The notes under the pieces are model-generated. The model was not told where the DNA came from. It did not search any database and worked only from the letters and a program-made list of their open reading frames with translations. The position numbers were made by a program, and so were the translations under genes. Positions 3,181-52,763 of a stretch of 64,000 bases of DNA are shown here, piece by piece; the stretch's first letter is position 1; each line of letters opens with the position of its first letter. Location: the NCBI GenBank assembly GCA_944392795.1, contig CALXXX010000037.1, positions 601 to 64,600 on the forward strand, written 5' to 3'. Origin of the DNA: an uncultured Alphaproteobacteria bacterium. Its GTDB lineage: Bacteria; Pseudomonadota; Alphaproteobacteria; CAAHEQ01; UBA3637.

Positions 3181-3233
3181 TCTTTTCTCCTTTATTGGTC
3201 AGCATAACAAGAGATAAAAGAAAAAACAACCTT

Positions 3234-3267
3234 TAAAAAAAGGAGGATCAATTGATCCTCCTTTTTT
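3234..3267 (-). terminator. Rho-independent terminator (bidirectional hairpin) downstream of the 619-aa gene
   Basis: Perfect palindrome AGGAGGATCAATTGATCCTCCT flanked by an A-run on one side and a T-run on the other, overlapping the stop at 3266-3268. Confidence 0.55.
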
Positions 3268-5125: not shown

Positions 5126-5195
5126 GATTAACTCCTTTTTTCTCTTATTTTTTAGTGTAGCACAGAGTTTTTATTTTGTCTAGTATTTTGTTAAA

Positions 5196-5843: not shown

Positions 5844-5953
5844 ATGAACCTCCTTTAAAAATACAAAAACTATTAAAATAATAATAGACGAATGTTTTTT
5901 TTAAGTCTATACTATTTCAAAAATAATTTTAAAAGTTTTTACAAGAGGTCTAA

Positions 5954-7396: not shown

Positions 7397-7399
7397 GAG

Positions 7400-8452: not shown

Positions 8453-8459
8453 GCCACAA

Positions 8460-9716
8460 ATGAAAAAGGTTTTTTCATATCTAAAAAATAAACCTTTCTG
8501 CCTCTTGATAATGGCGGCTGTCTTATTTTTATCCTCTTGCGGCATGGATGTTGAAGTTGATATCGTCAAAGCTCAGGAGGATATGAATTCGACAAAAAGC
8601 TGTTGGACTTGTCAATTGTTTACTATTGTTTTCAACACAGGAGCATCTATTGCTACAAATGCTTTTGATAGTATAAAAAATTTAGCTTGGGGACTTTTAG
8701 CGGTTGGATTAGTCATCTATCTTTGTCTACGAACACTTTCTTTATTCTTAAGCATGCGGCTTCCTGATCTGCCGAATTATTGGATTTCTATCACAACCAA
8801 GCTAGGAAAAGGAGGCCTTGTTTCCATTTTTTTATTAAGTTCCAGTCATATGTGGGAACTGATTAATACAATTATAGCACCGATTATTACGGTTTTTGTT
8901 CGTCTCTCATTTATGATTTTAAATTTAAATTTTCCAACTCGTGTTGCTACATCAACAACGGTTGGCTCTACTTTTATAAGCGGACCAGGCTTACCTGCTG
9001 AGATCGGAGCACAATTAGAAGATTTGGTCTATCGTTCAACTGTTGCCTTAAATATTGGACGAGCTTTAGGCCTTCGAATGATGATGCTTTCTGATTTTAC
9101 CGGCTTCATTATCGGTTTAATCATTATTGGAATTTTCTTTATGCTTTTACTTTTCTTCCCAATGTATTTAATTGATGCATTGGTGCGAATTATATTTGTT
9201 ATTATCCTTTTTCCTATCTTATTGGTCGCTTGGGTTTTCTCGGTCACAGAAAAATACTTTAAAACAGCTTGGAACATGCTGATCGGCGGATTAGCTCAAT
9301 TATTTATTTCCTGTGTTTTTATTGCTTTACTTGTCTCGACAATAGAAGCCTTTACTCAAATGCGTGGTTATAACATTATTCTTAATCCAACCTATCAAAA
9401 CACGAACCCTGATGTTTTACGTGAAATGTCCCGAATGTCCATCTCGGCCTTATCCTTTATCGTGATGGCTTTCTATTTATATAACTTATCAAAGCACCTA
9501 ACTGAAATTTCAGGCTTTTTAACAAACTCATCTCAAACTTCCATGGTCGGGGATTTTACCCGTCGGCTCAAACAATTAGCAATTGCTGCTGTTGCAGCAA
9601 CTATAGCTATTGTTGCCGCTTCTGTCGGTGCTGCACCAGTAACGGCTGTTATGAAAAAGAAAGCTTTGGATGAAGCGCAAAAAGCAGCTAAAAGTGATAA
9701 AAATAGCGGAGGGTAA
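8460..9716 (+). CDS. VirB6/TrbL-like membrane protein (paralog 2), lipoprotein-type signal
   Basis: N-terminal LFLSSCG lipobox-like signal, then polytopic. Conserved CWTCQLF and LIDALVRIIFVIILFPILLVAWVFSVTEKYFKTAWNMLIGG blocks shared with paralogs 1 and 3. Confidence 0.55.
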   Translation: MKKVFSYLKNKPFCLLIMAAVLFLSSCGMDVEVDIVKAQEDMNSTKSCWTCQLFTIVFNTGASIATNAFDSIKNLAWGLLAVGLVIYLCLRTLSLFLSMRLPDLPNYWISITTKLGKGGLVSIFLLSSSHMWELINTIIAPIITVFVRLSFMILNLNFPTRVATSTTVGSTFISGPGLPAEIGAQLEDLVYRSTVALNIGRALGLRMMMLSDFTGFIIGLIIIGIFFMLLLFFPMYLIDALVRIIFVIILFPILLVAWVFSVTEKYFKTAWNMLIGGLAQLFISCVFIALLVSTIEAFTQMRGYNIILNPTYQNTNPDVLREMSRMSISALSFIVMAFYLYNLSKHLTEISGFLTNSSQTSMVGDFTRRLKQLAIAAVAATIAIVAASVGAAPVTAVMKKKALDEAQKAAKSDKNSGG

Positions 9717-9718
9717 AA

Positions 9719-12238: not shown

Positions 12239-12350
12239 AAAGATTAGTCCTTTATTTTCGGGGAAAATACATTTTTTTTATTTTTTGTCTATTTTCTTAC
12301 AACAAAATCTGTTATAACTAAGAAAAAGAATAAAAAGGAGTAAAAACTAA

Positions 12351-13292
12351 ATGGAAGAAATTATATTCCCAAATCAAATTCGGATGATACGACGGACACG
12401 TGGCAAAACAATGAAAGAAATTGCCGGTATCTTAGGGGTCAGTTTATCCGCTATTAGTAAAATAGAAAAAGGTTATCGCCGTATTGATGAAGAGCAATTA
12501 GATAAAATTTCATCTTTTTTGGACTGTCCTAAGGAAAGTATTTTTGTTTATGAAAAAACTTCACAACCTGAAGTTTTGCAAGCTTGGCAAAAAGAACAAG
12601 ACCGCCGGAAACAAATTAACGAAAAAAGTGGTTTAAAAACATTGGGCGCTGGACTGAGATATATTCGCGGAGAAAAGATGCTCACATTGCAAGATGTAGC
12701 CAAAGGAGCCGGCTTAACGCTTTCGGTTTATCATCGCATTGAAATGGGACAGCGAGAGGTAACAGAAGAACAATTTAAAAAAATTGCACATGCTCTTGGT
12801 TTTACAACAGAAACATTACAGCTTCAAATCTATGAATTAGATATGGCCGGAACTTTGCAAGAGTTCAAAAAAACAGGAAAACCAGGTATTTTTCATCCTA
12901 AAGGTGGGTATAATGATCTTCCTCTCAAGTCTTTAAGTATTAATAAAAAAATACTGGTTCATCAGGCGACTGTAAATAATGATACGTTTGTTCTCAATGA
13001 TCAAACATTTGAAATGGATGCTTCTCTTCCTTTTGCTCAAGAATTAACCGGAATAAAAGTGAATACTTCTTTATCTTTCGGTAGTTTTTCTGCCACATAT
13101 GTTTTGGCTACTCATGCCCCATTAAAAGAAGGAGAACCTGTCTTATTTCAACAAAAAGAGAATATTTTCTTACCCGGAACTTTTTCTCAACAAAACAATA
13201 AAACTGTATTTAAGGCCTCAGATGGAACAGAGCAGATCTTAACAGAAAATGATTTAAAAAAGCTTTCTAAAATAGTTGCTCTTTATTTTTAA
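12351..13292 (+). CDS. Tandem helix-turn-helix (XRE-family) transcriptional regulator with C-terminal domain
   Basis: Two HTH_3-like segments: TMKEIAGILGVSLSAISKIEKGYRRID and LTLQDVAKGAGLTLSVYHRIEMGQREVT. AAAAGGAG RBS 8 nt upstream of the ATG. Confidence 0.7.
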   Translation: MEEIIFPNQIRMIRRTRGKTMKEIAGILGVSLSAISKIEKGYRRIDEEQLDKISSFLDCPKESIFVYEKTSQPEVLQAWQKEQDRRKQINEKSGLKTLGAGLRYIRGEKMLTLQDVAKGAGLTLSVYHRIEMGQREVTEEQFKKIAHALGFTTETLQLQIYELDMAGTLQEFKKTGKPGIFHPKGGYNDLPLKSLSINKKILVHQATVNNDTFVLNDQTFEMDASLPFAQELTGIKVNTSLSFGSFSATYVLATHAPLKEGEPVLFQQKENIFLPGTFSQQNNKTVFKASDGTEQILTENDLKKLSKIVALYF

Positions 13293-13304
13293 CCAGAATA
13301 AAGG

Positions 13305-14162
13305 ATGAAAAAAATGGCGCTTGATGTCCTTTCTTGGAAAAAAGAATTTTTAAAACGAAAAAAGTCCTCAAATGAGGAGGCTGAATCAACAGCTCAACGG
13401 CTTATTAATATTTATCGTCAGTTATACACATTAGGACCAGAAGCCAATCAACGATATAATGCCATGCTGTTAAAAGATGCAACATTAGAGGTCCAAATTG
13501 CCCTTAAAAATATACCAGGTGGAGAAGAAATCCGCGATTATTTGAATTTCCTAAAGCATCAAGAATTGTCCGAAGAAGAAGAAAGTCAAGCGCTCCATGA
13601 AGGAAATGAGGCTTTACAAATAAAAAATGATCTACCAGCTCCAGAAGAAATGTCTCCATTATGGGAAACTTATGGAATGCCGACTAGAGGGGGAATATCA
13701 GAACCTGCTTCTATAACCTATACGAAATCTGATGCCGAAAAAATAACAGAACAAATTATCTCTTTGGAAGCTGTTGTGCATGAAACTCAGAAACAAAATA
13801 TTTTATCTATGATAGAAACCCAAAATGAACGCATTTTAGAAATATTAAGATATATGGTCATTGACTCTGATGTAGATAAAATGCATGAAAATTTGAAAAA
13901 CAGTATTGAAAAGGTAAAAGAAGTTCAAAAAGAAAATACTGAAAAAATTACAGATGCCTTAAAAAAAGAACCTTTACTAACTGAAATCAAAGAAAAATTA
14001 ACGGCGCTTTTCGATAAACAAGAAGCTGAAGCTATTGCAGAAAACGAAGCAAAAGAAGCTGCACGTAGAAAAGAAAACAAGCCAGTCGATAAATTTCGAA
14101 AGATGAAACAACCTACAAAATTTTCTGTTCATTTAATTGAAGATGAAAAGGCTGATTTTTAA
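13305..14162 (+). CDS. Hypothetical acidic coiled-coil protein, 285 aa
   Basis: Clean ORF 12 nt after the regulator. Glu/Lys-rich helical sequence. No signal peptide. Confidence 0.5.
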   Translation: MKKMALDVLSWKKEFLKRKKSSNEEAESTAQRLINIYRQLYTLGPEANQRYNAMLLKDATLEVQIALKNIPGGEEIRDYLNFLKHQELSEEEESQALHEGNEALQIKNDLPAPEEMSPLWETYGMPTRGGISEPASITYTKSDAEKITEQIISLEAVVHETQKQNILSMIETQNERILEILRYMVIDSDVDKMHENLKNSIEKVKEVQKENTEKITDALKKEPLLTEIKEKLTALFDKQEAEAIAENEAKEAARRKENKPVDKFRKMKQPTKFSVHLIEDEKADF

Positions 14163-14221
14163 AGAAACATTAACTATCTTTCTTTATACTTGCTAAAAGG
14201 AAAATAGATAAGGATAAAATA

Positions 14222-15712
14222 ATGAATATTGATCCAACGTTGCAGCCACTTATAGAAGCTCTGATTGCTTATCAAGAAAATCAAGAAACTTTAATGCCTT
14301 TAGTTGAAAAAGCTCAAGATATTTTAGGCCCTGACTGGACAAGCTTTATTCAAACATCGTTAGATACGATGACAGGCATCGATCAGCCGACAAAAGAGAT
14401 GCTGAAGAAAAAAGCAGATCACGCTATTCATTATTATGGCGCATTAGCTGCTTGGGAAGAAGCTTATCAATATATCAATGCGCCTCAATCTGTCAATAAT
14501 ATGCAGCTGATTGAACGTATTCCAACTTTAGAATACTGGCTTTCCTTGTTCGGAGACGAAGGAACAAAAGTTATTAACCAATTAAAGGATTTACTGAATG
14601 ATGTCGATCAAAATGAAGCGACAGAACCTGTAGAAGCTATCTCTGAAATTGTAAATGAAGAACAGAAAGATAATCAATCTTTCGTTCATATCATGGAACA
14701 AACTGATGAAAAAAAGGATGAAGAAAATTCCCTTCCAGCCAGTGAACATACTTCAGAGCCTCAAGAAATAATCGAACCAGAAACTGTTACGCCACTTGTA
14801 GATGAGCTTTCTTCAACGCAAGAAAATACTTCAGAAGACCAAAAAGATCAAAGATTAGAAGATAATGTCTCTGTAGATACTCAGCAACTACAGAATGAAA
14901 TTGCATTTGAGAAAAATGAAAAAGAAACACCAGATATAGAAAATGGGCTCTCTGAGGAAATTCACTTAAATGAAATGCCAGCCCTTCCAGATGTCCCTCT
15001 AGATCAAGTTATTGAAGAAAACACGGACAAACAAGAAGCATTTTCACAACAATCCATAGACGAAAATATCTCTTCAGAGGAAACAACTACAGAATCAGAA
15101 GTAATTGAAATGATGTCTCCAAAAGAAATTCCGGAGACGCCAGAAATTTTAGAAAATGATCCTAATTTACAAATTCCTAAAACGAAAAATTGGGAAATAT
15201 CTAATTTTATGAAGCTTAAAAATTTATATGAAGATGCAACTAACTGGATTAGCGCTCATTGCGTTCGATTAAATAATATGGATAAAACAGAATATCCTTA
15301 TTATGGTTTCATCGTCGATCTCATGAAAGAGTTAAAAGACAATATACAAAACTTATTAGAAAATCAACTGTTAGAAGAAGTGATTGATACTGAAGTCCCA
15401 GGCGGACGCGAAGGTATGCAAAGCCTTCTAGACGCTTTAGAAAAAGAATTAGAGGATTTGCCAGAAAATTTAAAACCAATTGAAGAAAATACAAATATCG
15501 ATCCTCATAAAATCTTAGGAGAACTGGATACCAGTTCTGAAAAAGAATATATCGGTCCGGCACCCGATGGCTTCGAATTAATTGAAGATCCTTATGAAGT
15601 CTCGCCGGAAAAAATTATCGAAGATTATAAAAAAACAGAAGAAGAAACAAAAGTCGATTTTGATTCACTAAATGTAACCTCTTCTTCAGGTCAAGAACAG
15701 AAAAAGGAATAG
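14222..15712 (+). CDS. Hypothetical highly acidic (Glu/Asp-rich) protein, 496 aa; candidate T4SS substrate or chaperone-bound effector
   Basis: Long ORF with an extremely acidic low-complexity middle region and no TM or signal peptide. Its stop overlaps the next gene's start. Confidence 0.5.
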   Translation: MNIDPTLQPLIEALIAYQENQETLMPLVEKAQDILGPDWTSFIQTSLDTMTGIDQPTKEMLKKKADHAIHYYGALAAWEEAYQYINAPQSVNNMQLIERIPTLEYWLSLFGDEGTKVINQLKDLLNDVDQNEATEPVEAISEIVNEEQKDNQSFVHIMEQTDEKKDEENSLPASEHTSEPQEIIEPETVTPLVDELSSTQENTSEDQKDQRLEDNVSVDTQQLQNEIAFEKNEKETPDIENGLSEEIHLNEMPALPDVPLDQVIEENTDKQEAFSQQSIDENISSEETTTESEVIEMMSPKEIPETPEILENDPNLQIPKTKNWEISNFMKLKNLYEDATNWISAHCVRLNNMDKTEYPYYGFIVDLMKELKDNIQNLLENQLLEEVIDTEVPGGREGMQSLLDALEKELEDLPENLKPIEENTNIDPHKILGELDTSSEKEYIGPAPDGFELIEDPYEVSPEKIIEDYKKTEEETKVDFDSLNVTSSSGQEQKKE

Positions 15713-17173
15713 GTGACGCTGATGACAAACACAACTACTCACATCAAAAAAACAAGCCTTTTATTCGTTGGAGCTCTTGCGTTAATAACTGTAGCTACCC
15801 CTTGTCTAGCCCAAATTAACCAAACAGCTTTTCCTTGCAATGCAGAAGCTTGTTCTAATCCGAACATGATGAATATTTCTACAGAAATGCAAACTTCTGA
15901 ACCATGTTCTGTTACACAGCAAAATTTAGGTCCTATCATTATGCCTGTTATCATTCAACCAGCTCAAGTTGTTAAAGCATACCCCACTCCACAATCTGGC
16001 TCGCCTATTGACCGTTTCAATGAACAGCAACAGATGAACAGGCAATTACAAAAAGGAAATGATATATCTGTCATGGACTTATCTTCAGCAACGACATTAA
16101 ACATTGAAACACCTATTCGATGTGATATTCCTTTCCCAACAAAGCAAATTATTTCCAATATTCCTATGAATTCAGATGACTTCAAAATGACTCGTCTTGA
16201 TAAGAATGATCCTCTTCCAAGATATGAAGTAAACGGATATACTTTTACCAATCAACCTTTGGATTTAGCAATTCAAAATCTGGTGACAGAAGCAGGTATT
16301 CACGTCTTTTCAGATGATGGGTTATATCCTGAAATTTCAGCTGAAGATCTTAGAGGAGAATTATCTGATGTCATAGAAGAACTTGCTAATGCAGGAGATG
16401 CCTATTTCAGATATGATGCTATGAAAAAGAAGCTTTATTTATCTAGATGGGCTCGCTTTGAGTTATCTGTTCCAGGTGGACGTGTCGGTTTATTTGCTGT
16501 TCTAGATGCTCTACGTGGCGCCGGCATTACAAATGTTCAACCAGATTTTGGAACAAATACTCTTTACTTCCGAGCTAACACAGAAGTTCAATCAACCGTT
16601 GAACGGCTAATTGAATACTTAAAAGAAGATCCCAGACTTTTAATGATGGATGTTAAAGTTTATCGATTGACTGAACGCCCAAATGCCTCCGAATTAAATT
16701 GGCAAACGATTATCCAAAACTTTGGCGTAAAGCGTGTCAATATGTCGGTTGGAGGTATTATGGGACGTATGATCGTCACTGGCCATCAAAAACAAAATTA
16801 TTCGTTAATTGATAGTCTACAAAAACAAGTGAATGTTAATTTAGTCTCTGAAGGTGTGGCTATTATGCCAAATGCATGGAAAGTTCGATTTGATATTGGT
16901 CAATGTGCACCAGTCCAAACGCCTGAAAGAGATCTATCCTTATTGCTGCAAAGCAATATTCAATCACCAGATCGTATTGAAACGAATATTTCATTAGATA
17001 CAATCAATGGTGAGATTACTTCTTTCTACTCTTTTTATAATATCGATGATAACCTAAGTATTATTGGAATTCCAGGTAGCATCTTTAATAAAAATTGGAA
17101 AGGTGTTGAATATTTAATTACGATGCAGCCCCGTATTTTGCGCCTTGTAAAAGAAGGAGAACAGAATGACTGA
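15713..17173 (+). CDS. Secretin-like outer-membrane protein (divergent; CpaC/RcpA-size)
   Basis: Signal peptide (ALALITVATPCLAQI). An N-domain-like segment (MMDVKVYRLTERPNASELNWQTIIQNF). The C-terminal IIGIPGSIFNKNWKGVEYLITMQPRIL resembles the secretin-domain end (…IPxLGxLF…ELLIFITPRIV). The start may be GTG at 15713 or ATG at 15722. Confidence 0.4.
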   Translation: MTLMTNTTTHIKKTSLLFVGALALITVATPCLAQINQTAFPCNAEACSNPNMMNISTEMQTSEPCSVTQQNLGPIIMPVIIQPAQVVKAYPTPQSGSPIDRFNEQQQMNRQLQKGNDISVMDLSSATTLNIETPIRCDIPFPTKQIISNIPMNSDDFKMTRLDKNDPLPRYEVNGYTFTNQPLDLAIQNLVTEAGIHVFSDDGLYPEISAEDLRGELSDVIEELANAGDAYFRYDAMKKKLYLSRWARFELSVPGGRVGLFAVLDALRGAGITNVQPDFGTNTLYFRANTEVQSTVERLIEYLKEDPRLLMMDVKVYRLTERPNASELNWQTIIQNFGVKRVNMSVGGIMGRMIVTGHQKQNYSLIDSLQKQVNVNLVSEGVAIMPNAWKVRFDIGQCAPVQTPERDLSLLLQSNIQSPDRIETNISLDTINGEITSFYSFYNIDDNLSIIGIPGSIFNKNWKGVEYLITMQPRILRLVKEGEQND

Positions 17174-17762
17174 AGCCCCTAAACCGGTATTTAAAGCACC
17201 GAATATTCCGTCTCAGAAAAAAAACGAAGTAACACCTCCCTCTGGAGTGTCTGCTCCAGTAGCGTCAACAGGGTTAAAAGCAGCAGCTCCTGCAATTCCT
17301 GCTTATGAGAAAAAAGCCTCTCAACAAAATACAAAAAATACTCAAGGTGTATATGATGATAATTTCGCGGCTCAATTAGGATTACCTCCAACAATTTTAC
17401 AAACAAAAGTAATGGCTGGTATTTTAGGAGCCGTTTTATTCTTCGGTATAGTCTTGGGCTGTACGATGTCTGGTAACGGAGGACAAACTCATACACAGGG
17501 CTTAACTGGGGTCGTCCTTAATCCAGAAGTTCCTGCAAACAGACAACGGTGTGGAATCGCAGAAAGAACTCAAGGCTGTGTTCTTTATCTTCAAAATCCA
17601 TCTCGTCGTGATCGTGAAGCCCGTGACTTTTACCAAGAAGCTTCTCGTATGACTGGTGTCGCCAGCTATACTATTGAACTCGGAAATATTGAATATGCAA
17701 CAAGTATTATTCGACCCGGTTGGATAGCACAAATTAATATTCCTCCGACAGGAGCTCGTTAA
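17166..17762 (+). CDS. Hypothetical membrane/lipoprotein, 198 aa, translationally coupled to the secretin-like gene
   Basis: Overlaps the upstream gene by 8 nt. The Pro/Ala-rich N-region is followed by a hydrophobic helix ending in a VLGC lipobox-like motif. An alternative start at 17412 would give a 118-aa lipoprotein. Confidence 0.4.
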   Translation: MTEAPKPVFKAPNIPSQKKNEVTPPSGVSAPVASTGLKAAAPAIPAYEKKASQQNTKNTQGVYDDNFAAQLGLPPTILQTKVMAGILGAVLFFGIVLGCTMSGNGGQTHTQGLTGVVLNPEVPANRQRCGIAERTQGCVLYLQNPSRRDREARDFYQEASRMTGVASYTIELGNIEYATSIIRPGWIAQINIPPTGAR

Positions 17763-17804: not shown

Positions 17805-18794
17805 CTATGTAATCGCTGTCACAGCACGAATATTGCCGTTACGATTAATCTGAACGACCCGCAGCTTATCCCTCATTTCTCGCAGCGTTTTATCTCTATC
17901 TATTGTTGGTGTTGTTCTCATAATACGAGCAACAAATGCTTTATACGCCTCTTCAGGATTCTCCGCATGAATCGTAGCAAAACAGTTTTCATGACCAGAG
18001 CCCATTAATTCCCAAATAGCACTGGCATTTGATGTTGAAATCTCTCCTCCGATAATCGCATCAGGAGTAAAACGAACGACTAAGTCAATAACACGTGGAT
18101 AAGTAAATCCATTCGTTTGATCTGTACGAGGTAAAACAATATGCACACGATTCTTATGTGGAACAATAAGTTCCCGCGTATCCTCAATCGTTAAAATACG
18201 TTTATGCTCATCCACTAATTTAATCATATTATTCAAAAATGTCGTTTTACCTGTTGCAGTTCCACCGCTGATAAGAATATGCTCTCCTTTACGTATTGAA
18301 AGCAACAAGCGATCATAAGGATCATCAGGATCTTCTACATTTGCTAACTTACTTAATGGACGTAGACGTTCCCCTTGCTCCAAATTAAAGTCTTTAAACT
18401 CTATTCCTACATCTTCTTTATAAACACGAATAGCAAGAGCAACACCACCCGTTAAATCATCATTATCATACATGACGTTACGACCACTAATACCCGTAAA
18501 ACGATGACCTCCGGGAAGTGTAGCATAAACAACCGGAGTTCCTTCTGTCGGTTCAAAAGAATAATCATAACTGTTTGCTATAATATAAAGAATATTATTT
18601 AAATATTCTCGTGTTAGCTTAGGATCAATCTGTTCAACCCACGGATATGCTCTTTTACCTCGCAAACGAAGCCAAATAGAACCTGGATGATCTACTGCAA
18701 CCTCTTCTACATTATCTTGTGTATACCAATAGGATAAAGGTCGTAATGCCGACTCCAAAACTTTATAGGTTTCGGAAATGGATAACTCTGGCAT
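17805..18794 (-). CDS. virB11: VirB11-family type IV secretion ATPase
   Basis: 329 aa. Walker A ISGGTATGKTTFLN and the conserved VirB11/CagAlpha-like fold signature (…RVIDLVVRFTPDAIIGGEI…). It is the last gene of the virB8-virB11 operon. Confidence 0.85.
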   Translation of the reverse strand: MPELSISETYKVLESALRPLSYWYTQDNVEEVAVDHPGSIWLRLRGKRAYPWVEQIDPKLTREYLNNILYIIANSYDYSFEPTEGTPVVYATLPGGHRFTGISGRNVMYDNDDLTGGVALAIRVYKEDVGIEFKDFNLEQGERLRPLSKLANVEDPDDPYDRLLLSIRKGEHILISGGTATGKTTFLNNMIKLVDEHKRILTIEDTRELIVPHKNRVHIVLPRTDQTNGFTYPRVIDLVVRFTPDAIIGGEISTSNASAIWELMGSGHENCFATIHAENPEEAYKAFVARIMRTTPTIDRDKTLREMRDKLRVVQINRNGNIRAVTAIT

Positions 18795-18806
18795 TTGCGG
18801 CTCCTT

Positions 18807-38312: not shown

Positions 38313-39508
38313 TATTTTTTCTCTATAACGGCTTTTTTCCTTAAATCTTGAAGCTTCTCATTCGATTTTTGCTCCATTTTTTCCATTTCAAGTTGCTGTT
38401 TTATAACCTCGAGTTTAGGCAAAACAGAAACAACTCGTTTATCACATTTCATTAAAAATAAATCGAAATCTTCTGCTTCAATAGGACCTATGATTTTTTT
38501 CATCGGAGCATCTTTTAGTAACTCATATAATTGATCCGGCATCCGAGGAACAGGCATTTCAGGCATCAGACCAGACCCTTTTAATCCTTCACGCATTGCT
38601 AAAGATGTAAAAGATTGAGGATTTCCATCTGCCTTGGCAAGCTGATCCGAAAAACGAGCCGCTTCTCCCTTAGGAAGAAGAAACTGCGCAACACTCCAAG
38701 CTTCAACTTCTGTTGATGTCAACGCTTTTTGTTTATCTCTCATTAAAATCAAATAATAACCTTCTTTGCCTTCTATGGGCTTTGACATCTGTCCGGGTTC
38801 CATTTGTTCTAAAATGCCATCAATAGCCTTTTCTAAACTTCCTTTTGAAACCCAACCTAAATCGCCTCCTATCGAAGCAGTTTTTCCTTTAGAAAATTGA
38901 ACTGCCAATTCAGGAAAAACCTCGCCTTTTACAATGCGATCGAACAAACTTTGAGCTTGTTCTTCTGCGGCTTTTTTATCTGTACCAAAAGGAACATAAA
39001 TCTCTGCCAACAAATAACTCGGCTTCATCATCTCTTTTTTTATCTTTTCTAGTCGAGCTTTCACTTCCTGTTCCGTTACAACCGGAGGTTTCTCATTTTC
39101 TGAACGAAGTACCTTTAGCCAAAGTATATCAGACGTCATCTGATTTTCTAAGGTATCGAAAGAAATATCTGATTCCTTTAACAGGCGTTGAAGAGAACCA
39201 GGTTCCATTCCATTTTGCTTTTCCAAAAAAGAAATCCCTTCTTCTACTTCACCTTCTTCTAAAATAATCCCTTTACTGGCTGCTTCCTGCTTTTTTACTT
39301 TTTCTAAAATAAGCGTCTCAAGAACTTGAGCTTTAGTTTCCTCTGTGACTGGCGTCTTCATCAGAGCATGCATCATCTTTGATCGCATATCAACATCATA
39401 ATCCGATATTACTTCATCATTTACTGTTGCAATAATCTCAAACGCCCGAGCTGAAAAGGATAGACTTAAACTGAGCCCGATTATAGCAAAAATTATTTTT
39501 TTCATCAT
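38312..39508 (-). CDS. surA: SurA-like periplasmic chaperone / parvulin-type peptidyl-prolyl isomerase
   Basis: Signal peptide, a SurA N-domain and a parvulin domain (…GGDLGWVSKGSL…GYYLILM…). It lies downstream of lptD as in conserved lptD-surA synteny, and overlaps rsmA by 1 nt. Confidence 0.8.
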   Translation of the reverse strand: MMKKIIFAIIGLSLSLSFSARAFEIIATVNDEVISDYDVDMRSKMMHALMKTPVTEETKAQVLETLILEKVKKQEAASKGIILEEGEVEEGISFLEKQNGMEPGSLQRLLKESDISFDTLENQMTSDILWLKVLRSENEKPPVVTEQEVKARLEKIKKEMMKPSYLLAEIYVPFGTDKKAAEEQAQSLFDRIVKGEVFPELAVQFSKGKTASIGGDLGWVSKGSLEKAIDGILEQMEPGQMSKPIEGKEGYYLILMRDKQKALTSTEVEAWSVAQFLLPKGEAARFSDQLAKADGNPQSFTSLAMREGLKGSGLMPEMPVPRMPDQLYELLKDAPMKKIIGPIEAEDFDLFLMKCDKRVVSVLPKLEVIKQQLEMEKMEQKSNEKLQDLRKKAVIEKK

Positions 39509-42500
39509 ACTGCTCCCAATGTTTTCAAGATCATACGCACATAAAAAGAAGTATCGCCTTTATAATCTCGATCTTTCGTAAACTCTTTCTCTGCCGAAAA
39601 AAGTAAGGTAATGCATTCATTTTCAAATTGCAAGCCTCCTCCGGCTTCTATCGGACCGCCATCAACAGCTAAATCATAACGGTAATATCCATATGCCGAC
39701 CAAGATGGTGTTAAACGAGAATTTATTTGTCCAAAAATTTCTTCACGATCTTTTAGATAATTTTTGACTTTATTCTCCTGACTAGCCTGCATGTAAAAAT
39801 AACCTAATGTAACTTTAAAAGGAGCTCTTCCGGCATATAAACTGACCTCTGACATCTCCTGACTTAGATTATCTTGATTTAAACGAAAACGATAATTCAT
39901 ACCAAAATCTTTAAGCTTCATATTTAAATGACCAACATAAGAAGAAAAATGATTTTCAAAGCCGGCACCTTCCGCAACACTGTTGTCATCACGGAAACGA
40001 TAGGATTGTCCAAACAAAGCGGATACAGATATATTCTTCGGACCATATAATGTCCATTGCATACCATAATTTAAACGAGCACCTGTCTCAACACGATCAT
40101 AGCCCGCATACCGATTAGCAGAGAATAAATTTGTATCATCAAATTCATAATCCAAACTATCCTCGTTAGGAATATTTTTATTACTGCTGTTAGGGCTCCA
40201 TACCCCCATAACGATTGGTTCTAATACTTGACTGTAATTTTCACCTTGTTGCATTAAGGGATATCGAACCTCCATAGACAAATTCGGGTACACTCGATTA
40301 GTATTTTTTGTTTCATCCTCAACCGTTTGAATAGAATAACCATCAAAACGAATACTCGCCTCTGTATTGATAACTGCACCAATTGAAGAAATATAAGGCA
40401 ATCGCAAAGCTTGCAAATATGATAATCGTGTCGATTCAGGTTTTTCATGCCGATAAACCCCTGCACCATTAACCTGTGAAACAGAATATAATCCATTCCA
40501 TAATGGACGCGTTACATACTCATAATTCACTTGAGGTACCTTCGGCATAGAACTATTTTTTACATCAGCTCTCAAATTTTGAAATGCATACATTTTAATA
40601 AACGCATAAGCATTTTCTCCGAAATGCTCTAAAGCTGCATCACTTTGTATCCAGGGCGCTTGATCATCAACATTATCAATTGGATATCGCCTAAAATAAG
40701 TATCATCACTTACACGAAAGTAAGTCCCTCGAAAGCGCAACCGATCTGTAATATCATATTCATAATAAGCTTTTATATGACCTTCATTATTGTGATCATC
40801 ATCATTTTGTGTGCCAGAAAAATCAAGTGTTAATCCACTTTCCTGATACAACCCCCGATAACGACCTTGGACCAAAGGAACATGAGAAAAAGAAATCGTT
40901 GGGTTTATGTATAAATCTTGACTATCTGAAATAGCCCAAAAAAAAGGCAGATCAAAACCGGAACCCATTTCAGTCGAACTAGCTAATGCCGGAGTTAAAA
41001 AACCTGTTTTCCGCTTAACCTGAAAATCAGGGTACTCTAAATATGGCCAATAAAAAACAGGAACTCCTTTTAAATTTAAAAAGGCATGTTTATAAACAAA
41101 TTCTTTCTGTTGATAATTGTGAAGAACCTGTCCTGCTCGAAGGCTCCATAGAGGCTTCTCAGGCGAGCAATAAGTACAAGGCGTAAAAAAAACATCCTTA
41201 AAATCCGTTATATTACCTTTATCTGTCCTAGCGACAGATTGAGCCTCAAAAACAGACCCGTCCGCTAATTTCATATGAACTGCTTTAATCAATCCTTCTT
41301 TGATGTCTCCTGTTAAGTCTGCCTCATCAGAAAAAAGTTGAACACCATCAGGACGCGTTAATACAACATTCCCGGTTGCATAAACAGTATCCTTACTCTG
41401 ATCGTATTCAATTTTATCTGCCCGAAAAGTCGAACCTTCCTGTTTTATAATGACATTTCCGGTCGCTGTCAAAATACCGGTTTTCTCATTATAAGAAATC
41501 GTATCTGCCTCAAAAGGAGCTGGAGCATCTTTATGAAGCGTTGTATCAGCAATAAATTGAGGTTCTGCTGCTTCAACAGAAAAAGCTAAGAAGAAAAAAA
41601 CTAAAAAAAGAAGAGAAATCATCTTCTTAGAACGTTTCTGTTGAGGAGATTGTTCTTTAAGAAAATATCCGCGCTTCAATATAATCATTCCGCTCAAAAT
41701 AGGAACTAAAATATTCAATCCCATCAAAAAGAGAAAAAATAAATTTTTTTCGGATAAGTTTTCAAATCCAAGCGCCATTGATTGAATTAAAATAACGGCT
41801 CCTATTGACATATAAATACGTCCGTTTTGTCCTCGCCTGTTGTAATACCCCAACAAAAGAGGTAAAAGACCAATCATTAAATAGACTAATGAATAAAGGG
41901 GTTGCGTTAAGCGTTTAAAAGCCTCCACTTTATACTCTCGAAATTGCGTCTGTGATATCCTTGGATCTGTTGACTTGGCCATCAAAAGACGAACTAAGGG
42001 AAGTTCCTCTTCTCCGGCGGAACGCTCGTTATTTCGGCGACTCTCCTCTAAAACCATGGTATTCTGATCAAAACTTAATGAAGAAAAAATACCTGTCCGA
42101 CGATTATACTCCTGACGTCGACCTTGATGCATCACAATCCGTGGTTCTTCGCCCGTTACATATAATCCATTTTGAGCTACCATCACTATTCTTTTTTCAG
42201 GATCTCGACCATCGTGAATTAAAATTCCTTCCAATTCGCCTGTTGGTTTAAAAGAGCGGACATAAATCGTTATATTACTCGGCAAGTTATTAAACTCACC
42301 TTCTTGAATAACAACATGTGCTAAATCATTCCTGATCTTAAAGCGAAGTTCTTTAAAATGCGTCACAGAATAAGGAACCAACCACAACGTTAAACAATAG
42401 CCTAAAACAACTAAAATTAAGCTCATATAAAAACCGGGCTTCGCCAGCTGCCAGGGAGACATACCAACTGCTTTCATTACAATCAGCTCTCGATCTGCCA

Positions 42501-42741
42501 ATAAACGCTGATACACAAACAAAAGAACAATAAAAAATGCAAGTGGTGTGATAATCGCAATAAAATTCGGTAAAACCAAAAGTGTCAATTGAACAAATAA
42601 ATGAACAGAGACTCCTTTATTAACAATCCAATCAATCATCCGTAAGCTTTGAGATAACCAGATAATTCCCGTCATACCCAAAGCTATCAGCAAAAAACCG
42701 ATGACTAATTGTTTTAAAATATATTTATTTAATGTTTTCAT
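39505..42741 (-). CDS. lptD: Single 1078-aa ORF containing an LptG-like permease (N-terminal ~360 aa) fused in-frame to an LptD/OstA-like LPS-assembly protein (C-terminal ~706 aa, internal ATG at 41622)
   Basis: The N-part has YjgP/YjgQ permease topology (MKTLNKYILKQLVIGF…, six TM helices). After a KQSPQQKRSKKM linker comes an LptD signal peptide (MISLLFLVFFFLAFSVEAAEP), the OstA N-domain (…TGNVIIKQEGSTFRADKIEYD…) and a long beta-barrel region. No stop codon separates the two parts, because the ORF track gives one continuous protein. Confidence 0.7.
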   Translation of the reverse strand: MKTLNKYILKQLVIGFLLIALGMTGIIWLSQSLRMIDWIVNKGVSVHLFVQLTLLVLPNFIAIITPLAFFIVLLFVYQRLLADRELIVMKAVGMSPWQLAKPGFYMSLILVVLGYCLTLWLVPYSVTHFKELRFKIRNDLAHVVIQEGEFNNLPSNITIYVRSFKPTGELEGILIHDGRDPEKRIVMVAQNGLYVTGEEPRIVMHQGRRQEYNRRTGIFSSLSFDQNTMVLEESRRNNERSAGEEELPLVRLLMAKSTDPRISQTQFREYKVEAFKRLTQPLYSLVYLMIGLLPLLLGYYNRRGQNGRIYMSIGAVILIQSMALGFENLSEKNLFFLFLMGLNILVPILSGMIILKRGYFLKEQSPQQKRSKKMISLLFLVFFFLAFSVEAAEPQFIADTTLHKDAPAPFEADTISYNEKTGILTATGNVIIKQEGSTFRADKIEYDQSKDTVYATGNVVLTRPDGVQLFSDEADLTGDIKEGLIKAVHMKLADGSVFEAQSVARTDKGNITDFKDVFFTPCTYCSPEKPLWSLRAGQVLHNYQQKEFVYKHAFLNLKGVPVFYWPYLEYPDFQVKRKTGFLTPALASSTEMGSGFDLPFFWAISDSQDLYINPTISFSHVPLVQGRYRGLYQESGLTLDFSGTQNDDDHNNEGHIKAYYEYDITDRLRFRGTYFRVSDDTYFRRYPIDNVDDQAPWIQSDAALEHFGENAYAFIKMYAFQNLRADVKNSSMPKVPQVNYEYVTRPLWNGLYSVSQVNGAGVYRHEKPESTRLSYLQALRLPYISSIGAVINTEASIRFDGYSIQTVEDETKNTNRVYPNLSMEVRYPLMQQGENYSQVLEPIVMGVWSPNSSNKNIPNEDSLDYEFDDTNLFSANRYAGYDRVETGARLNYGMQWTLYGPKNISVSALFGQSYRFRDDNSVAEGAGFENHFSSYVGHLNMKLKDFGMNYRFRLNQDNLSQEMSEVSLYAGRAPFKVTLGYFYMQASQENKVKNYLKDREEIFGQINSRLTPSWSAYGYYRYDLAVDGGPIEAGGGLQFENECITLLFSAEKEFTKDRDYKGDTSFYVRMILKTLGAV

Positions 42742-48722: not shown

Positions 48723-50576
48723 ATGACACAAGAAAAACATTCTTTTCAGGCTGAAGTCAGCCAAGTTTTAGATATCGTCGTCAATGCGCTTTACTCACAT
48801 AGCGAGATTTTTTTACGCGAGCTCATTTCAAATGCTTCTGATGCTTGCGATAAGCTCCGTTATGCAGCTTTAACACACCCTGATTTAATGAAAGAACATG
48901 GTTCTTTTGAAATTAAATTGATACCCAATAAATCAGAAAAAACTTTATCTATTATTGATAATGGTATCGGAATGAATAAAGAAGATTTAATCGAAGATTT
49001 AGGAACTATTGCAAAATCAGGCTCTGCTGAATTTGCTAAGCATCTAACCGGAGACGCTAAAAAGGATTTAGCGCTTATTGGACAATTCGGCGTCGGTTTT
49101 TATTCAGCTTTTATGGTGGCTGATAAAGTCGAAGTTCTCACGCGCAAAGCAGGAGACAAAACAGGTTGGTTATGGTGCAGCTCCGGCAAAGGTGAATTCA
49201 CCATTGAAGAAGAACCAAAAGCGGAAATTGGTACAAAAATCACTTTACACCTCAAGAAAGACTTTATGGAATATACAGATCCTATGCGACTAAGATATGT
49301 TGTCCGTCAATACTCAGATCATATTTCTATTCCAATTATCTTAGATGCTGATGGGAAAAAAGAAACCATCAATTCAGCTTCTGCTTTGTGGACACGTCCG
49401 AAATCAGAAATTACAGAAGAACAATATCGTGATTTTTACCGTCATTTAACACATAATTTCGATGAACCCTGGTTGACGCTTCACTATACGGCAGAAGGCG
49501 TAATTGAATATCGAGCTCTTCTGTTTATTCCTCAAAAAGCGCCATTTGATTTATTTCAACCGGATAAAAAACATGCTTTAAATTTATATGTCAACCGTGT
49601 CTTTATTTCTGATGAAGTCACGGATTTATTACCTCACTACTTCCGGTTTGTAAGAGGAATAATAGACACTTCTGAATTACCTCTGAATGTCAGCCGTGAA
49701 ATGCTACAACATACGCCTGTGCTTACAAAGATTAAAAAAGGCATTGTTCATCGGCTCTTGGATGAATTAAAGAAAAAAGCAAACGATAAAGAAAATTATG
49801 AAGTTTTCTGGCACGATTTTGGCATTGTTTTCAAGGAAGGACTCTATGAAGATCAAGAAAACGCCAAGAAAATAGCTGACTTATGCTTATTTTCCAGCAC
49901 AAAAGATGATAAATTAACATCTTTTGCTGACTATGTTGCTCGCATGCCGAAAGAACAAAAAAATATCTACTATCTGACCGGAGACGATTTAGCAACACTT
50001 AAAAATAATCCTCAGTTAGAAGGCTTTACAGCAAGAGGAATTGAAGTTTTATTGTTAACTGATCCTATTGATGAGTTCTGGCCTCAAATGTTTACAGAAT
50101 ATGATGGTAAAAAAATTCGTCCGATAACACATCCAGACACTGATATTGATAAGGTAAAAGCAATTGAAGAAATAACCGGAGAATCAATTGAAGAAAACCT
50201 GCGAACTGTTTTAATCGCTAAATTTAAAGAAGTGCTTGGAAAAGAAGTCAACGACATTAAAATTACCAACCGTTTAAATAAATCTCCTGTTGCTCTTGTT
50301 GCCGGAGAAGGACAAATGAGCATTCACTTGGAACGCTTGATGAAGCAACATGGACAAGCTCAAGCTTTTTCCAGCAACCGTACATTAGAGCTCAATCCTC
50401 GTCATCCTGTCATAAAGAAACTAGCGACAGCGATTTTTGAAAAAAAAGAAGAACAAAAAGTTTTGGATGCAATATGGGTTTTATACGATCAAGCTAGAGC
50501 CATTGAAGGAGAACCACTGCGAGATCCTGCCGGCTTCATAGCAAAAGTTAATAACTTTTTGGAAAGCGGATTATAA
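48723..50576 (+). CDS. htpG: Molecular chaperone HtpG (Hsp90)
   Basis: 617 aa. HSEIFLRELISNASDACDKLRY N-terminal ATPase motif and GQFGVGFYSAFMVADKV. Confidence 0.92.
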   Translation: MTQEKHSFQAEVSQVLDIVVNALYSHSEIFLRELISNASDACDKLRYAALTHPDLMKEHGSFEIKLIPNKSEKTLSIIDNGIGMNKEDLIEDLGTIAKSGSAEFAKHLTGDAKKDLALIGQFGVGFYSAFMVADKVEVLTRKAGDKTGWLWCSSGKGEFTIEEEPKAEIGTKITLHLKKDFMEYTDPMRLRYVVRQYSDHISIPIILDADGKKETINSASALWTRPKSEITEEQYRDFYRHLTHNFDEPWLTLHYTAEGVIEYRALLFIPQKAPFDLFQPDKKHALNLYVNRVFISDEVTDLLPHYFRFVRGIIDTSELPLNVSREMLQHTPVLTKIKKGIVHRLLDELKKKANDKENYEVFWHDFGIVFKEGLYEDQENAKKIADLCLFSSTKDDKLTSFADYVARMPKEQKNIYYLTGDDLATLKNNPQLEGFTARGIEVLLLTDPIDEFWPQMFTEYDGKKIRPITHPDTDIDKVKAIEEITGESIEENLRTVLIAKFKEVLGKEVNDIKITNRLNKSPVALVAGEGQMSIHLERLMKQHGQAQAFSSNRTLELNPRHPVIKKLATAIFEKKEEQKVLDAIWVLYDQARAIEGEPLRDPAGFIAKVNNFLESGL

Positions 50577-50603
50577 AAAAAGCGCCATTAGGCGCTTTTT
50601 TTA
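50577..50603. terminator. Bidirectional rho-independent terminator between htpG and the convergent Cys-rich gene
   Basis: A7, then GCGCC ATTA GGCGC, then T7. The T-run overlaps the stop of the minus-strand gene (50601-50603). Confidence 0.65.
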
Positions 50604-52292
50604 AACACCTTCTACTACTTCGTAATCTGTATTAGGATAACCCTCTATCAGCTTAATTTCTCCCCGAACACTGTGACAGCCATAGCCTGTCCCAGTCCAG
50701 TAAGCATATTGATTTTTCTCACAGCAATATTGTTGTTGTGGAAATCCAATAACGTCTAAAAATTCAGCTGAATTATTACAACAACCGTATTCTTTTTCAA
50801 GTGTTTGAAAAACTGTATCCGCAGGTTCACAACATGTTGCTTTTCCATTTTTCCAAACAGCTCCGGCATTTCCTTCTTTTGTTGTTTCACAACAAGTCTG
50901 CATATTTTTTGGCGCACCGACAACATCAACAACTTGACGCATAATAGTGATTGTTTCTCGAAGATTATCATCAATTCCTCGCTCAATTGCACAACATTCA
51001 TAATCTGTCTCTGTCTTGTAAACACTTCCATCACAACACAAAGATTGATTATTCTTAAAATACCCGACAAATTGAGAAGATTTCATAATTTTCAAACAAC
51101 AAGTTTTACGAGGATTAGGTGCTCCAATTACATCAACAAAAGCATTATAGCCCCCATCGGTATTAGAGTATTGGCAACATTGAACTTCTCCATTATCATT
51201 GACATAAGCATGTTTCGTCACGTCGCAACATGTTTGGTAATTTCGTCCAAAGATATCAGTTGCAAAACCATAATCCATATCACTACTACAACATCCATAA
51301 AATCCATCCTCTTTCTTGTAAGCTCCATTTTCTAAACAACAAGCAATCTTTTTTCCAGTAAATACGGGTTGCATGCTCGAAACTTCTGTCATTTCTCCTG
51401 TATCATAATTAACACTTCCACAACAAGCTTCTCCTGTTCCACCTAAAACAGGTAATGGATAACTACAACATCTATATCCTCCATCAGGATTAAAAGCCGC
51501 TTGCTCATTTCCATAACAACACAACGTTTTTCCACCACTAACTGGAACAGCCTCATTTGCTTTATTCCCTCTATAAAGTGGACAACAACTTTCGCTATTA
51601 TACCCATCGATTTGAACCGGAACAACAGAAGCATAATCCAAACAACATTCCTTCTTATCTCCTGTATAACTTTTATAAGTCTGTTCGTTTTTACAATCGC
51701 CTGAGGGAGAAGAAAGAGTCAAATCAAATAAACCAAAAGGAATTCTAAGTACTTTTTTTCCCTCAACAGCCCAGGCAGATGAAACAAATAACGTCACAGC
51801 TGCTTCGTCAAAAATATCACAAACACTGTAATCCGGATTACTAGGATCAAATTCTCGATCACCAACCTGGAGCATATAAGGCGTTGCAAATGGTTTATGC
51901 AAAAGCTCCACACACGTTTCACGTGTCAAATTTGAAATTTCAACCACAAAGGCAGCACCATCATTTTCCGTTTCTTCCACCCGATAAACAGAAACATCAT
52001 ACGGATTTTCTTTAAGTTCCGGAATAGGAATCTCTGTTTCTGCCTCATAAACGCTTAAATCTTCTTTGTCCCACAAAACGAATGTTCGACGTTGAATATC
52101 ATCATAGATATCATTGGCTGTATTCTTAACTTGCAGCTTGCTATACATTGTCAAAGCAACTATTGATAAAACACCTATCAACGCCAAAACACCTAAGAGT
52201 TCTATCATACCTCGACCTTTTTGAAGAGATTTTGTCAAATGAAAATCTTTCTTGCGAAAGACTTGTTTTGCATTAAAGATGGTATGAAACAT
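50601..52292 (-). CDS. Secreted or membrane-anchored Cys-rich repeat protein, 563 aa (about 10 di-cysteine CC modules; N-terminal pilin-like hydrophobic segment)
   Basis: N-terminus …KGRGMIELLGVLALIGVLSIVALTMYS is a signal anchor resembling a prepilin leader. The body contains recurring …xCC…(Y/F)…G…xCC… modules roughly every 25-30 aa (TCCETTKEG…ATCCEP…YGCCNNS…YCCEK…; LCCYGNEQAAF…YRCCSYP…; IACCLENGAYKKEDGFYGCCSSD…). Confidence 0.55.
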   Translation of the reverse strand: MFHTIFNAKQVFRKKDFHLTKSLQKGRGMIELLGVLALIGVLSIVALTMYSKLQVKNTANDIYDDIQRRTFVLWDKEDLSVYEAETEIPIPELKENPYDVSVYRVEETENDGAAFVVEISNLTRETCVELLHKPFATPYMLQVGDREFDPSNPDYSVCDIFDEAAVTLFVSSAWAVEGKKVLRIPFGLFDLTLSSPSGDCKNEQTYKSYTGDKKECCLDYASVVPVQIDGYNSESCCPLYRGNKANEAVPVSGGKTLCCYGNEQAAFNPDGGYRCCSYPLPVLGGTGEACCGSVNYDTGEMTEVSSMQPVFTGKKIACCLENGAYKKEDGFYGCCSSDMDYGFATDIFGRNYQTCCDVTKHAYVNDNGEVQCCQYSNTDGGYNAFVDVIGAPNPRKTCCLKIMKSSQFVGYFKNNQSLCCDGSVYKTETDYECCAIERGIDDNLRETITIMRQVVDVVGAPKNMQTCCETTKEGNAGAVWKNGKATCCEPADTVFQTLEKEYGCCNNSAEFLDVIGFPQQQYCCEKNQYAYWTGTGYGCHSVRGEIKLIEGYPNTDYEVVEGV

Positions 52293-52430
52293 AAGACACT
52301 CCTATTAAAAATTTTAATCGATATTTTAATAATTTTAACCTATCGTTTTATTCTTACTAGTTTATTCGTTAATAGTCAATTTTTTATCTTCAACTTGACA
52401 AAAATAAAAAAAACGTATACTCTGTCTCGC

Positions 52431-52763
52431 ATGAAAAAATACATCTTTTTATTCTGTTTAATGCTCTTAACCGCCTGCATGCAAGTGGGCGATAAGCAGA
52501 CAAATACCATTTTAACATTAGCTAAATCTGATAGTTTATCTACCTTACAAGGAAAAACGCCAGAAGAAATTATTGCTATTTTAGGTGAACCGGCAATTGT
52601 TCGAACCGAAAAACCTCATCAAACTTGGGCATATAAAGCACCTGATTGCGCCTTATTCGTTTTTTTTAACGGAGATGGACTTTCTTGCTATACGGAAGCT
52701 AAAGGCTCTTGCGACAAGCATGTTGCTCGTCAAATTTTAGCCCAAAAACAACACGTTCTTTAG
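52431..52763 (+). CDS. Small lipoprotein, 110 aa
   Basis: MKKYIFLFCLMLLTACMQ gives a lipobox LTAC. The ORF frame nominally starts at 52221 but overlaps the minus-strand gene, so the ATG at 52431 is taken. A possible TTGACA-N15-TATACT sits immediately upstream (52395-52421). Confidence 0.5.
   Translation: MKKYIFLFCLMLLTACMQVGDKQTNTILTLAKSDSLSTLQGKTPEEIIAILGEPAIVRTEKPHQTWAYKAPDCALFVFFNGDGLSCYTEAKGSCDKHVARQILAQKQHVL

Follow-up and report, generated by a model that had tools for sequence, protein, structure and literature searches.

A putative modular type IVb pilin with a predicted disulfide-laddered stalk from an uncultured alphaproteobacterium

In a 64,000-nucleotide (nt) stretch of contig CALXXX010000037.1 from an uncultured Alphaproteobacteria bacterium (assembly GCA_944392795.1; this whole stretch is hereafter called the window), the open reading frame (ORF) at 50601..52292 on the minus strand starts with ATG and encodes a protein of 563 amino acids (aa). 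Our analysis favours, with rather more confidence than doubt, an explanation of this protein as a modular type IVb pilin that displays a disulfide-laddered stalk or adhesin. A preliminary description had seen in it a secreted protein of repeated di-cysteine (CC) modules behind a pilin-like anchor, either metal-binding or a "disulfide-rich surface fibre"; the latter is close to the reading favoured here. The ORF, all three peptide examples quoted in that description and its N-terminal string are present in the translation. The features of the gene are given below, each with its basis in brackets; AF2 stands for AlphaFold2, PDB for the Protein Data Bank and dN/dS for the ratio of nonsynonymous to synonymous substitution rates.

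50601..52292, minus strand: complete coding sequence of the putative 563-aa modular prepilin plus stop (ORF list, 98% and 75% orthologs, dN/dS)
52299..52303, minus strand: Shine-Dalgarno sequence AGGAG, 6 nt 5' of the ATG (read from the sequence)
52215..52292, minus strand: predicted leader peptide, residues 1-26 (MFHTIFNAKQVFRKKDFHLTKSLQKG), basic and hydrophilic, ending in Gly26 (family alignment of 149 N-termini, register against solved pilins)
52143..52214, minus strand: predicted mature N-terminus and hydrophobic alpha1-N helix, residues 27-50 (RGMIELLGVLALIGVLSIVALTMY), with Glu31 at +5 (hydrophobicity, AF2 helix, alignment with PDB pilins)
51708..52142, minus strand: rest of the putative pilin module, residues 51-195, with alpha1-C helix, globular head and conserved Cys127/Cys158 (profile A2 against TcpA, homologs, dN/dS 0.10)
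50676..51695, minus strand: putative di-cysteine ladder, residues 200-539, with Cys200 cap, 16 CC (216...523) and Cys539 cap, 34 Cys (Cys map, family cap rule, AF2)
50601..50675, minus strand: C-terminal 24-residue tail (HSVRGEIKLIEGYPNTDYEVVEGV) and stop, no head domain after the ladder (translation; kept in the ortholog)
50574..50603, no strand assigned: symmetric hairpin shared with htpG, resembling a bidirectional intrinsic terminator (folding against shuffles)

The gene is real and conserved, and both of its modules are under purifying selection. A word-indexed whole-protein search of 5.8 billion clustered proteins returned only two orthologs, with 98% and 75% identity. The former is syntenic and comes from a metagenome-assembled genome labelled "uncultured Alphaproteobacteria bacterium"; the latter lies on contig L001 in another neighbourhood, between a transketolase gene and an xerC-like gene. 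Codon comparison with this 75% ortholog gave a dN/dS of 0.13 overall, 0.10 in the N-terminal module and 0.15 in the CC module, and every Cys of the mature protein is kept in both orthologs. The least conserved part is the leader (residues 1-26), with 48% identity to the 75% ortholog, as expected of a segment that is removed on maturation. A TTG start at codon 19, which would leave a 7-residue leader as in many relatives, was considered and found less likely than the ATG, because the latter has a strong AGGAG and because the 28-residue leader of the ortholog fits the long form.

A class III signal is defined by a hydrophilic leader with Gly or Ala as its last residue, after which come 20-25 mainly hydrophobic residues, often with Glu5 (PMC10191384). 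The protein begins in this manner, with a hydrophilic leader that has a terminal Gly and a hydrophobic stretch that carries Glu5. Its N-terminus contains K-G-R-G-M-I-E-L-L-G-V-L-A-L-I-G-V-L-S, i.e. R27-G-M-I-E31 followed by LLGVLALIGVLSIVALTMY, and its sole hydrophobic segment covers about residues 26-55. In an exhaustive HMMER scan, 155 of 1.84 billion representatives matched at E <= 1e-3, nearly all of them over residues 20-135/170 only. The motif G-(R)-(S)-(M)-(I/V)-E-M-L-G-V-L-A-I-I-G-V-L-S was found in 149 of the 151 retrieved relatives (P0001-P0151); Glu stands at +5 in all 149, a residue that the search pattern itself required, and Arg stands at +1 in 147, with His and Lys once each. 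The resulting family signature, nearly invariant, is G↓RSM(I/V)EMLGVLAIIGVLS, in which the arrow marks the predicted cleavage by a prepilin peptidase; in the protein this would fall between Gly26 and Arg27 and leave Glu31 at the canonical +5. The preliminary description had rightly noted a prepilin- or pseudopilin-like leader, yet had put the Glu at +3 by counting from Gly28. Alignment with the relatives and the register against PDB pilins identify the conserved Gly as Gly26, and Glu31 is therefore +5. Two relatives are recognised by curated models of this signal: P0200, named "type 4 pilus major pilin" at NCBI, passes TIGR02532 with 17.0 bits against a cut-off of 16.3 bits, and P0174 carries PF07963. 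A literature search turned up no paper containing the family signature peptide.

The resemblance to pilins extends well past this signal. A profile (A2) was built from 24 N-terminal modules and run against PDB sequences and protein clusters. Among PDB sequences it matches type IV pilins only. The best match, TcpA (8uhf, E = 8.6e-6), can be aligned from residue 2 of the mature pilin along the helix and into part of the head, the conserved Cys included. Next come geopilin, PAK pilin, gonococcal pilin and others, all in the same register, the family's +2 standing opposite pilin residue 2. Among the protein clusters 5333 were matched at E <= 1e-5, and most of the top matches are 200-250 aa long and carry Bundlin (PF05307) and PilS (PF08805), which are type IVb pilin domains; the protein itself is tied to PilS/Bundlin only via this profile, whose top matches carry both domains. 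Family homology spans about 170 residues of the protein (27-195) and includes the conserved Cys pair. We therefore hold it very probable that residues 27-195 form a type IVb pilin module, so that the N-terminus is no mere anchor, as had been supposed, and instead comprises a complete pilin module of helix and globular domain with a conserved Cys pair. The preliminary description had also held that clear homology to a described family would speak against its reading; such homology exists for the N-terminal module, namely to type IVb pilins, and was not found for the CC module.

What follows the pilin module is dominated by cysteine. The protein has 36 Cys in total: 32 form the 16 CC of residues 216-524, and the other four (127, 158, 200 and 539) are single. 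Between residues 200 and 540 they make up 34 of 341 residues (~10%), and 32 of these 34 are paired as CC. When the residues of this region were shuffled, 16 CC were reached in 0 of 100,000 shuffles (maximum 10); such a CC pattern lies far outside what chance would give. Each CC makes one hairpin unit, and there are 16 units with a CC-to-CC spacing of 14-34 residues (mean ~20), and the units combine into 5-6 super-repeats of ~60 aa and of types A, B and C, type C carrying V-D-V-(I/V)-G-(A/F)-P. These counts replace the about 20 CC pairs and the ten ~28-aa modules reported earlier. The protein sequence contains only 5 His in 563 residues and no His-rich or other metal-type motif.

Neither Pfam nor NCBIfam holds a curated family that matches the CC module above threshold, and a PDB sequence search with this module gave no match. 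A profile of the CC region returned three proteins only in a word-indexed homolog search; given this and the two hits of the whole-protein search, the CC module has very few detectable sequence relatives. Among the top 150 HMMER matches about 14 proteins have at least 10 CC, and there is one CC-only match, which bears out the earlier remark on the rarity of CC-rich repeat proteins in bacteria. Of the CC-ladder proteins found, P0149 alone lacks a pilin module; this metagenome protein of 270 aa has six capped CC, an apparent Sec-type signal peptide and repeats (CCPKGQKAYWNG..., VSVVEGAP) like those of the target's relatives. The ladder module can accordingly stand alone.

The ends of the CC run are informative. 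The first CC is preceded at 16 residues by Cys200 and the last is followed at 15-16 residues by Cys539, and both caps are kept in the orthologs. The retrieved family proteins contain 29 uninterrupted runs of at least 4 CC, of which 28 have a single-Cys cap upstream, 27 downstream and 26 at both ends; the three uncapped run ends lie 6-15 residues from the end of the protein, and the proteins concerned are probably truncated. Such single-Cys caps argue for a chain of inter-hairpin disulfides, since vicinal disulfides or metal sites need no caps. The same rule is known from galaxins and calcarins, which have 10-23 regularly spaced di-cysteines with a single Cys at inter-CC distance before and after the run, and whose AlphaFold models consist of beta-hairpins in which the first Cys of a CC is bonded to the second Cys of the preceding CC (PMC12419799). 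The protein matches this architecture, having 16 CC, a single-Cys cap at -16 and another at +15 and, in the AF2 model of the module, hairpins only; its spacing is wider (12-32 intervening residues) than that of galaxins (10-15).

AF2 modelled the CC module (residues 196-545, alignment of 10 sequences) as beta-hairpins only, at a predicted local distance difference test score (pLDDT) of 70, and placed 26 of the 34 Cys in strands, compared with 51% of all residues. The full-length model, made from three sequences, is poor (pLDDT 50) and has a helix over residues 24-74, followed by strands. The order of parts is that of a pilin module (residues 27-195) with a C-terminal beta-rich domain (all-beta, 200-539). 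It seems likely from the caps and the model that about 16 beta-hairpins are stapled by 17 consecutive inter-hairpin disulfides, a connectivity that we infer. We found this module type, a disulfide-laddered hairpin rod, reported neither in pilins nor in bacteria; until now it has been known from galaxin-like proteins of corals, sponges and other eukaryotes.

From this we infer a course of events that would lead from cleavage and disulfide connectivity through pilus incorporation and tip location to an adhesive role and a ligand. The class III signal would insert the prepilin into the inner membrane, where a prepilin peptidase would cut the 26-residue leader after Gly26 and leave Arg at +1 and Glu at +5. 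The pilin module, i.e. the alpha1 helix and a small head that would be closed by a Cys127-Cys158 disulfide, would then allow uptake by a PilS/TCP-like type IVb machine (TCP, toxin-coregulated pilus), probably as a low-abundance tip subunit. In the oxidising periplasm the C-terminal 340 residues would fold into a stack of ~16 beta-hairpins, the second Cys of each CC bonding the first Cys of the next, so that 17 consecutive disulfides would begin at Cys200 and end at Cys539. The product would be a thin rod resistant to proteases and shear that projects from the pilus and functions in the gut as adhesin or spacer. Because it is followed by a 24-residue tail only, the ladder would itself be the part that is exposed here.

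A matching pilus machine exists in the lineage. In a subset of 78 metagenome loci, family pilins were found inside a type IVb pilus biogenesis cluster on two related gut metagenome contigs:

L062, 291-12324: type IVb pilus cluster with 4 pilins
L074, 1307-11845: type IVb pilus cluster with 2 pilins

The order in both is a TcpQ-domain protein, secretin, PilO (PF06864), an unassigned protein of ~520 aa, a 555-aa T2SSE ATPase, a 375-aa T2SSF platform protein, the PilS/bundlin pilins and a second ATPase of 320 aa. Most of the cluster pilins carry the signature G↓RSM.E, and those of L062 score up to 69.7 bits for PF08805 PilS. The 320-aa ATPase has a homolog at E = 1e-114 on contig L001, the one that carries the 75% ortholog. 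Judged by the R64 gene order, this set of genes is similar to those for the R64 thin pilus and TCP. The short second ATPase, directly after the pilin genes, is PilT/ComGA-like; retraction-type ATPases are, to our knowledge, unusual in type IVb systems. In L062, genes for a von Willebrand factor A (VWA) protein, a PP2C phosphatase and a Ser/Thr kinase lie ~2-5 kb further downstream of the cluster.

Several results weigh against a modular pilin. The 64-kb window contains no prepilin peptidase (peptidase A24), platform, secretin or other pilus machinery. No peptidase A24 was found in any fetched locus either, and a crude GxGD[..]K motif search there found nothing convincing. The contigs with pilus clusters come from related gut organisms and not demonstrably from the window's own organism. 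Known type IVb minor pilins are encoded inside the pilus operon; the present gene stands alone among housekeeping genes, with htpG on one side and a small lipoprotein-like ORF and then a murA-like gene on the other. The residue at +1 is Phe, Met, Leu, Trp or Ser in characterised type IV pilins and Met, Leu or Trp in characterised type IVb pilins, and we know of no characterised pilin with Arg at this position. Pfam and NCBIfam gave no pilin-model match to the protein even at E <= 10, TIGR02532 (IV_pilin_GFxxxE) and PF07963 (N_methyl) included, and the protein remains below the Pfam gathering thresholds of PilS (PF08805) and Bundlin (PF05307), with no match. AF2 confidence is low in the pilin module (pLDDT 35-63), where the "lollipop" fold of type IV pilins, with its long alpha1 helix on a beta-sheet head, would be expected, and Foldseek found no PDB analogue for either model: the best hit of the CC model has E = 0.027 at a template modeling (TM) score of ~0.1, and the search with the poor full-length model (pLDDT 50) is meaningless. 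Display of the protein on a pilus appears about evenly balanced.

The alternative that survives best is a pilin-like protein outside any surface pilus, in a periplasmic pseudopilus (type II-secretion-like) or as an inner-membrane anchor, whose ladder would serve as a periplasmic spacer or envelope element. We consider this unlikely, at odds of the kind that still deserve attention. It would agree with the lack of machinery or peptidase near the gene and with the single, dispersed positions of the family genes among housekeeping genes. GspK-type pseudopilins, too, carry extra domains (PMC8179133). A surface pilin, on the other hand, would have to bring a 340-residue appendage across the secretin, although the predicted ladder is thin. 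Against a pseudopilin speaks that the small pilins homologous to the protein have PilS and Bundlin domains, and that the L062/L074 clusters with their secretin, TcpQ-domain protein and PilO look type IVb and not like a type II secretion system (T2SS). The apparent lectin-like ends of some relatives, weak evidence in themselves, would likewise be sensible only outside the cell.

Clearly less probable is a role of the vicinal Cys as metal (Cu, Zn, Cd, Fe-S) or redox sites, which would turn the protein into a periplasmic or surface metal store or sensor. The high Cys content of residues 200-540 would suit such sites, and CC motifs do occur in some metal-binding proteins. His, however, is almost absent, the CC are embedded in predicted beta-strands and export would bring the module into the oxidising periplasm. 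The cap rule (26/29 runs) and the even Cys count suit a disulfide chain, whereas metal sites need neither, and galaxin-type proteins of the same pattern have been modelled as disulfide ladders (PMC12419799). The metal-binding role suggested earlier is thus disfavoured by the cap rule across the CC runs of the family.

We regard it as very improbable that the CC module is a true homolog of animal galaxins, acquired horizontally from a host and retaining a galaxin-like matrix or antimicrobial role. The cap-and-ladder architecture is identical, the family lives in the gut and Pfam Galaxin_repeat (PF24748) does align with residues 207-336 over 124 of its 131 profile positions, if weakly (E = 0.02). 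The score, however, is 15.3 bits against a threshold of 28, and when ten relatives, six of them CC-rich, were run against Pfam (among them P0003, P0005, P0006, P0007 and P0149), there was no Galaxin_repeat match and nothing useful. The base composition of the gene region is that of its surroundings. The taxonomy table of the galaxin PANTHER family (PTHR34490) lists animals, a few protists, 18 Euryarchaeota and essentially no bacteria, one bacterial-named entry being filed under Euryarchaeota. A simple CC-hairpin repeat can, moreover, arise convergently. Just as improbable is an ordinary Sec signal or uncleaved anchor on a Cys-rich repeat protein unrelated to type IV filaments, with only a superficial resemblance to pilins: the missing Pfam and NCBIfam pilin matches and the same CC repeats behind the apparent Sec signal of P0149 would agree with it, whereas the homology over 170 residues including the conserved Cys pair, the TcpA match, the nearly invariant G-R-x-x-x-E in 149 relatives and the lack of any Ala-x-Ala-type site in the target sequence after the hydrophobic segment speak against it.

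If the protein is a modular pilin, it joins a class that is established, widespread and diverse (PMC8179133). PilB and PilC of Streptococcus sanguinis (Raynaud et al. 2021, PMC8179133) likewise combine a class III signal, a small pilin module and a bulky C-terminal functional module, and for them, as for the present protein, tip display and adhesion have been proposed. In contrast to their vWA or lectin modules, what is grafted onto the pilin here is a ladder of di-cysteine hairpins, and the pilin module, from a diderm alphaproteobacterium, belongs to the type IVb PilS/bundlin kind. IPR012902, the signature used for finding modular pilins, would probably miss the protein, since the related TIGR02532 and PF07963 give no match to it.

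A second comparison is with the minor pilins CofB of colonization factor antigen III (CFA/III) in enterotoxigenic Escherichia coli (ETEC), TcpB of Vibrio cholerae TCP and PilV of the IncI thin pilus, which are ~420-520 aa in size and, like the present protein, join a pilin module to beta-rich C-terminal domains. They are tip-located or adhesins and belong to the pilus class of the major pilins PilS, TcpA, BfpA and CofA (PMC8179133, PMC10191384, PMC9045228). We detected no similarity in sequence between the protein and CofB, TcpB or PilV; major pilins alone were matched when the profile was run against the PDB. Unlike these minor pilins, the protein has a different C-terminal fold and its gene lies outside any pilus operon. 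The major type IVb pilins PilS (R64, S. Typhi), bundlin BfpA and TcpA are homologous to its N-terminal 170 residues and share the long 26-aa leader and the Cys pair; in contrast to them, the protein is three times longer, carries the signature G↓R-G/S-M-I/V-E and stays below Pfam thresholds. Galaxins, finally, are Sec-secreted and eukaryotic, with a few archaeal members, whereas the ladder described here is fused to a pilin.

The family to which the pilin module belongs is large, with more than 5,000 sequence clusters, and has neither a name nor a curated model. Most of its genes occur singly or in tandem pairs or triplets among housekeeping genes, and for six members that were looked up the neighbours were housekeeping genes only. 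Family contigs come from human-gut and other animal-associated metagenomes, as judged from the contig names. One of them, L009, is syntenic with the window at 39.5-46.8 kb, which places the family in the same bacterial lineage as the window. Four relatives (P0007, P0010, P0013 and P0015) have a Cys-rich/CC stalk followed by a C-terminal region with the motif "NWWSA.N.C...G..LAT"; this region may resemble a C-type lectin or Lcl_C domain, a reading that rests on the shared motif and one weak, sub-threshold Pfam match (PF07603, in P0013). Another relative, P0008 (1422 aa), ends in many CPP(E/D)TP(M/L)WNG repeats. As Cys-rich/CC stalks precede further domains in relatives, the ladder may well act as a rigid spacer.

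Tentatively, and as a possibility that we rate clearly below even, gut-associated Alphaproteobacteria might run a pilin-display system, new to the literature, in which many dispersed and separately transcribed G↓RSM(I/V)E genes feed interchangeable adhesin modules to one PilS/TCP-like type IVb pilus, the protein described here supplying a bacterial counterpart of the animal galaxin fold. On this reading, no di-cysteine ladder would have been described in Bacteria before, nor any that is fused to a pilin, although it would not overturn a concept. Simple type IV filaments are thought to owe their many functions to modular pilins. The family could matter for the attachment of poorly known, uncultured gut Alphaproteobacteria to other microbes, host cells or mucus. 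With its 17 defined disulfides, the ladder is also a compact and testable structural prediction, and it may serve as a rigid, protease-resistant scaffold.

At the locus itself, the gene is convergent with htpG (Pfam HSP90), and the two share a bidirectional terminator-like hairpin in the gap between them, just as the preliminary description had it. The gap measures 24 nt and holds the symmetric hairpin A7-GCGCC-UAAU-GGCGC-U7, which folds at -20.7 kcal/mol (z = -5.5), with equally stable shuffles in 0 of 200 cases. This hairpin, on the htpG side, went undetected by a consensus terminator scanner, probably since its A and T runs are paired within the stem. The remaining neighbours likewise have housekeeping roles: carD, a ferredoxin gene, a murA-like gene, dtd and pepA. 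The small ORF on the far side (52437-52763, plus strand) is divergent, has no Pfam match and starts with MKKYIFLFCLMLLTAC, which is lipoprotein-signal-like; it shares a common 144-bp promoter region with the prepilin gene.

Further observations concern other parts of the window. Its sole secretion genes form a VirB-type type IV secretion set at 17805-34481 (minus strand), ~16 kb from the prepilin gene; a link between the two was considered and rejected, as there is no evidence for it. The set includes VirB11 (329 aa), VirB9/CagX (556 aa) and VirB8 (254 aa), and its VirB10/TrbI is a giant of 2443 aa with beta-flower, RHS and DUF3659 repeats and 231-bp tandem repeats at 20386-20981. An 823-aa protein of the set, with a PF07996 type IV secretion system (T4SS) domain, was taken as VirB5-like; its first ~500 residues are a Ser/Gly/Trp-rich low-complexity repeat. 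At 39505-42741 (minus strand) an ORF of 1078 aa combines an LptF/LptG inner-membrane permease (residues 6-355) with LptD_N and LptD outer-membrane domains (411-1014). This topologically odd fusion was also called in the related contig L009 (1-2066, 1077 aa), and we know of no description of it. The region 2218-17762 holds 13 large ORFs, 12 of which have no Pfam match at E <= 1e-5, the exception being a double helix-turn-helix (HTH) protein at 12351-13292. This run of ORFs could be an island or effector block beside the type IV secretion genes; between 12 and 16 kb the window has a lower G+C content (0.33-0.36) and a strong positive AT skew.

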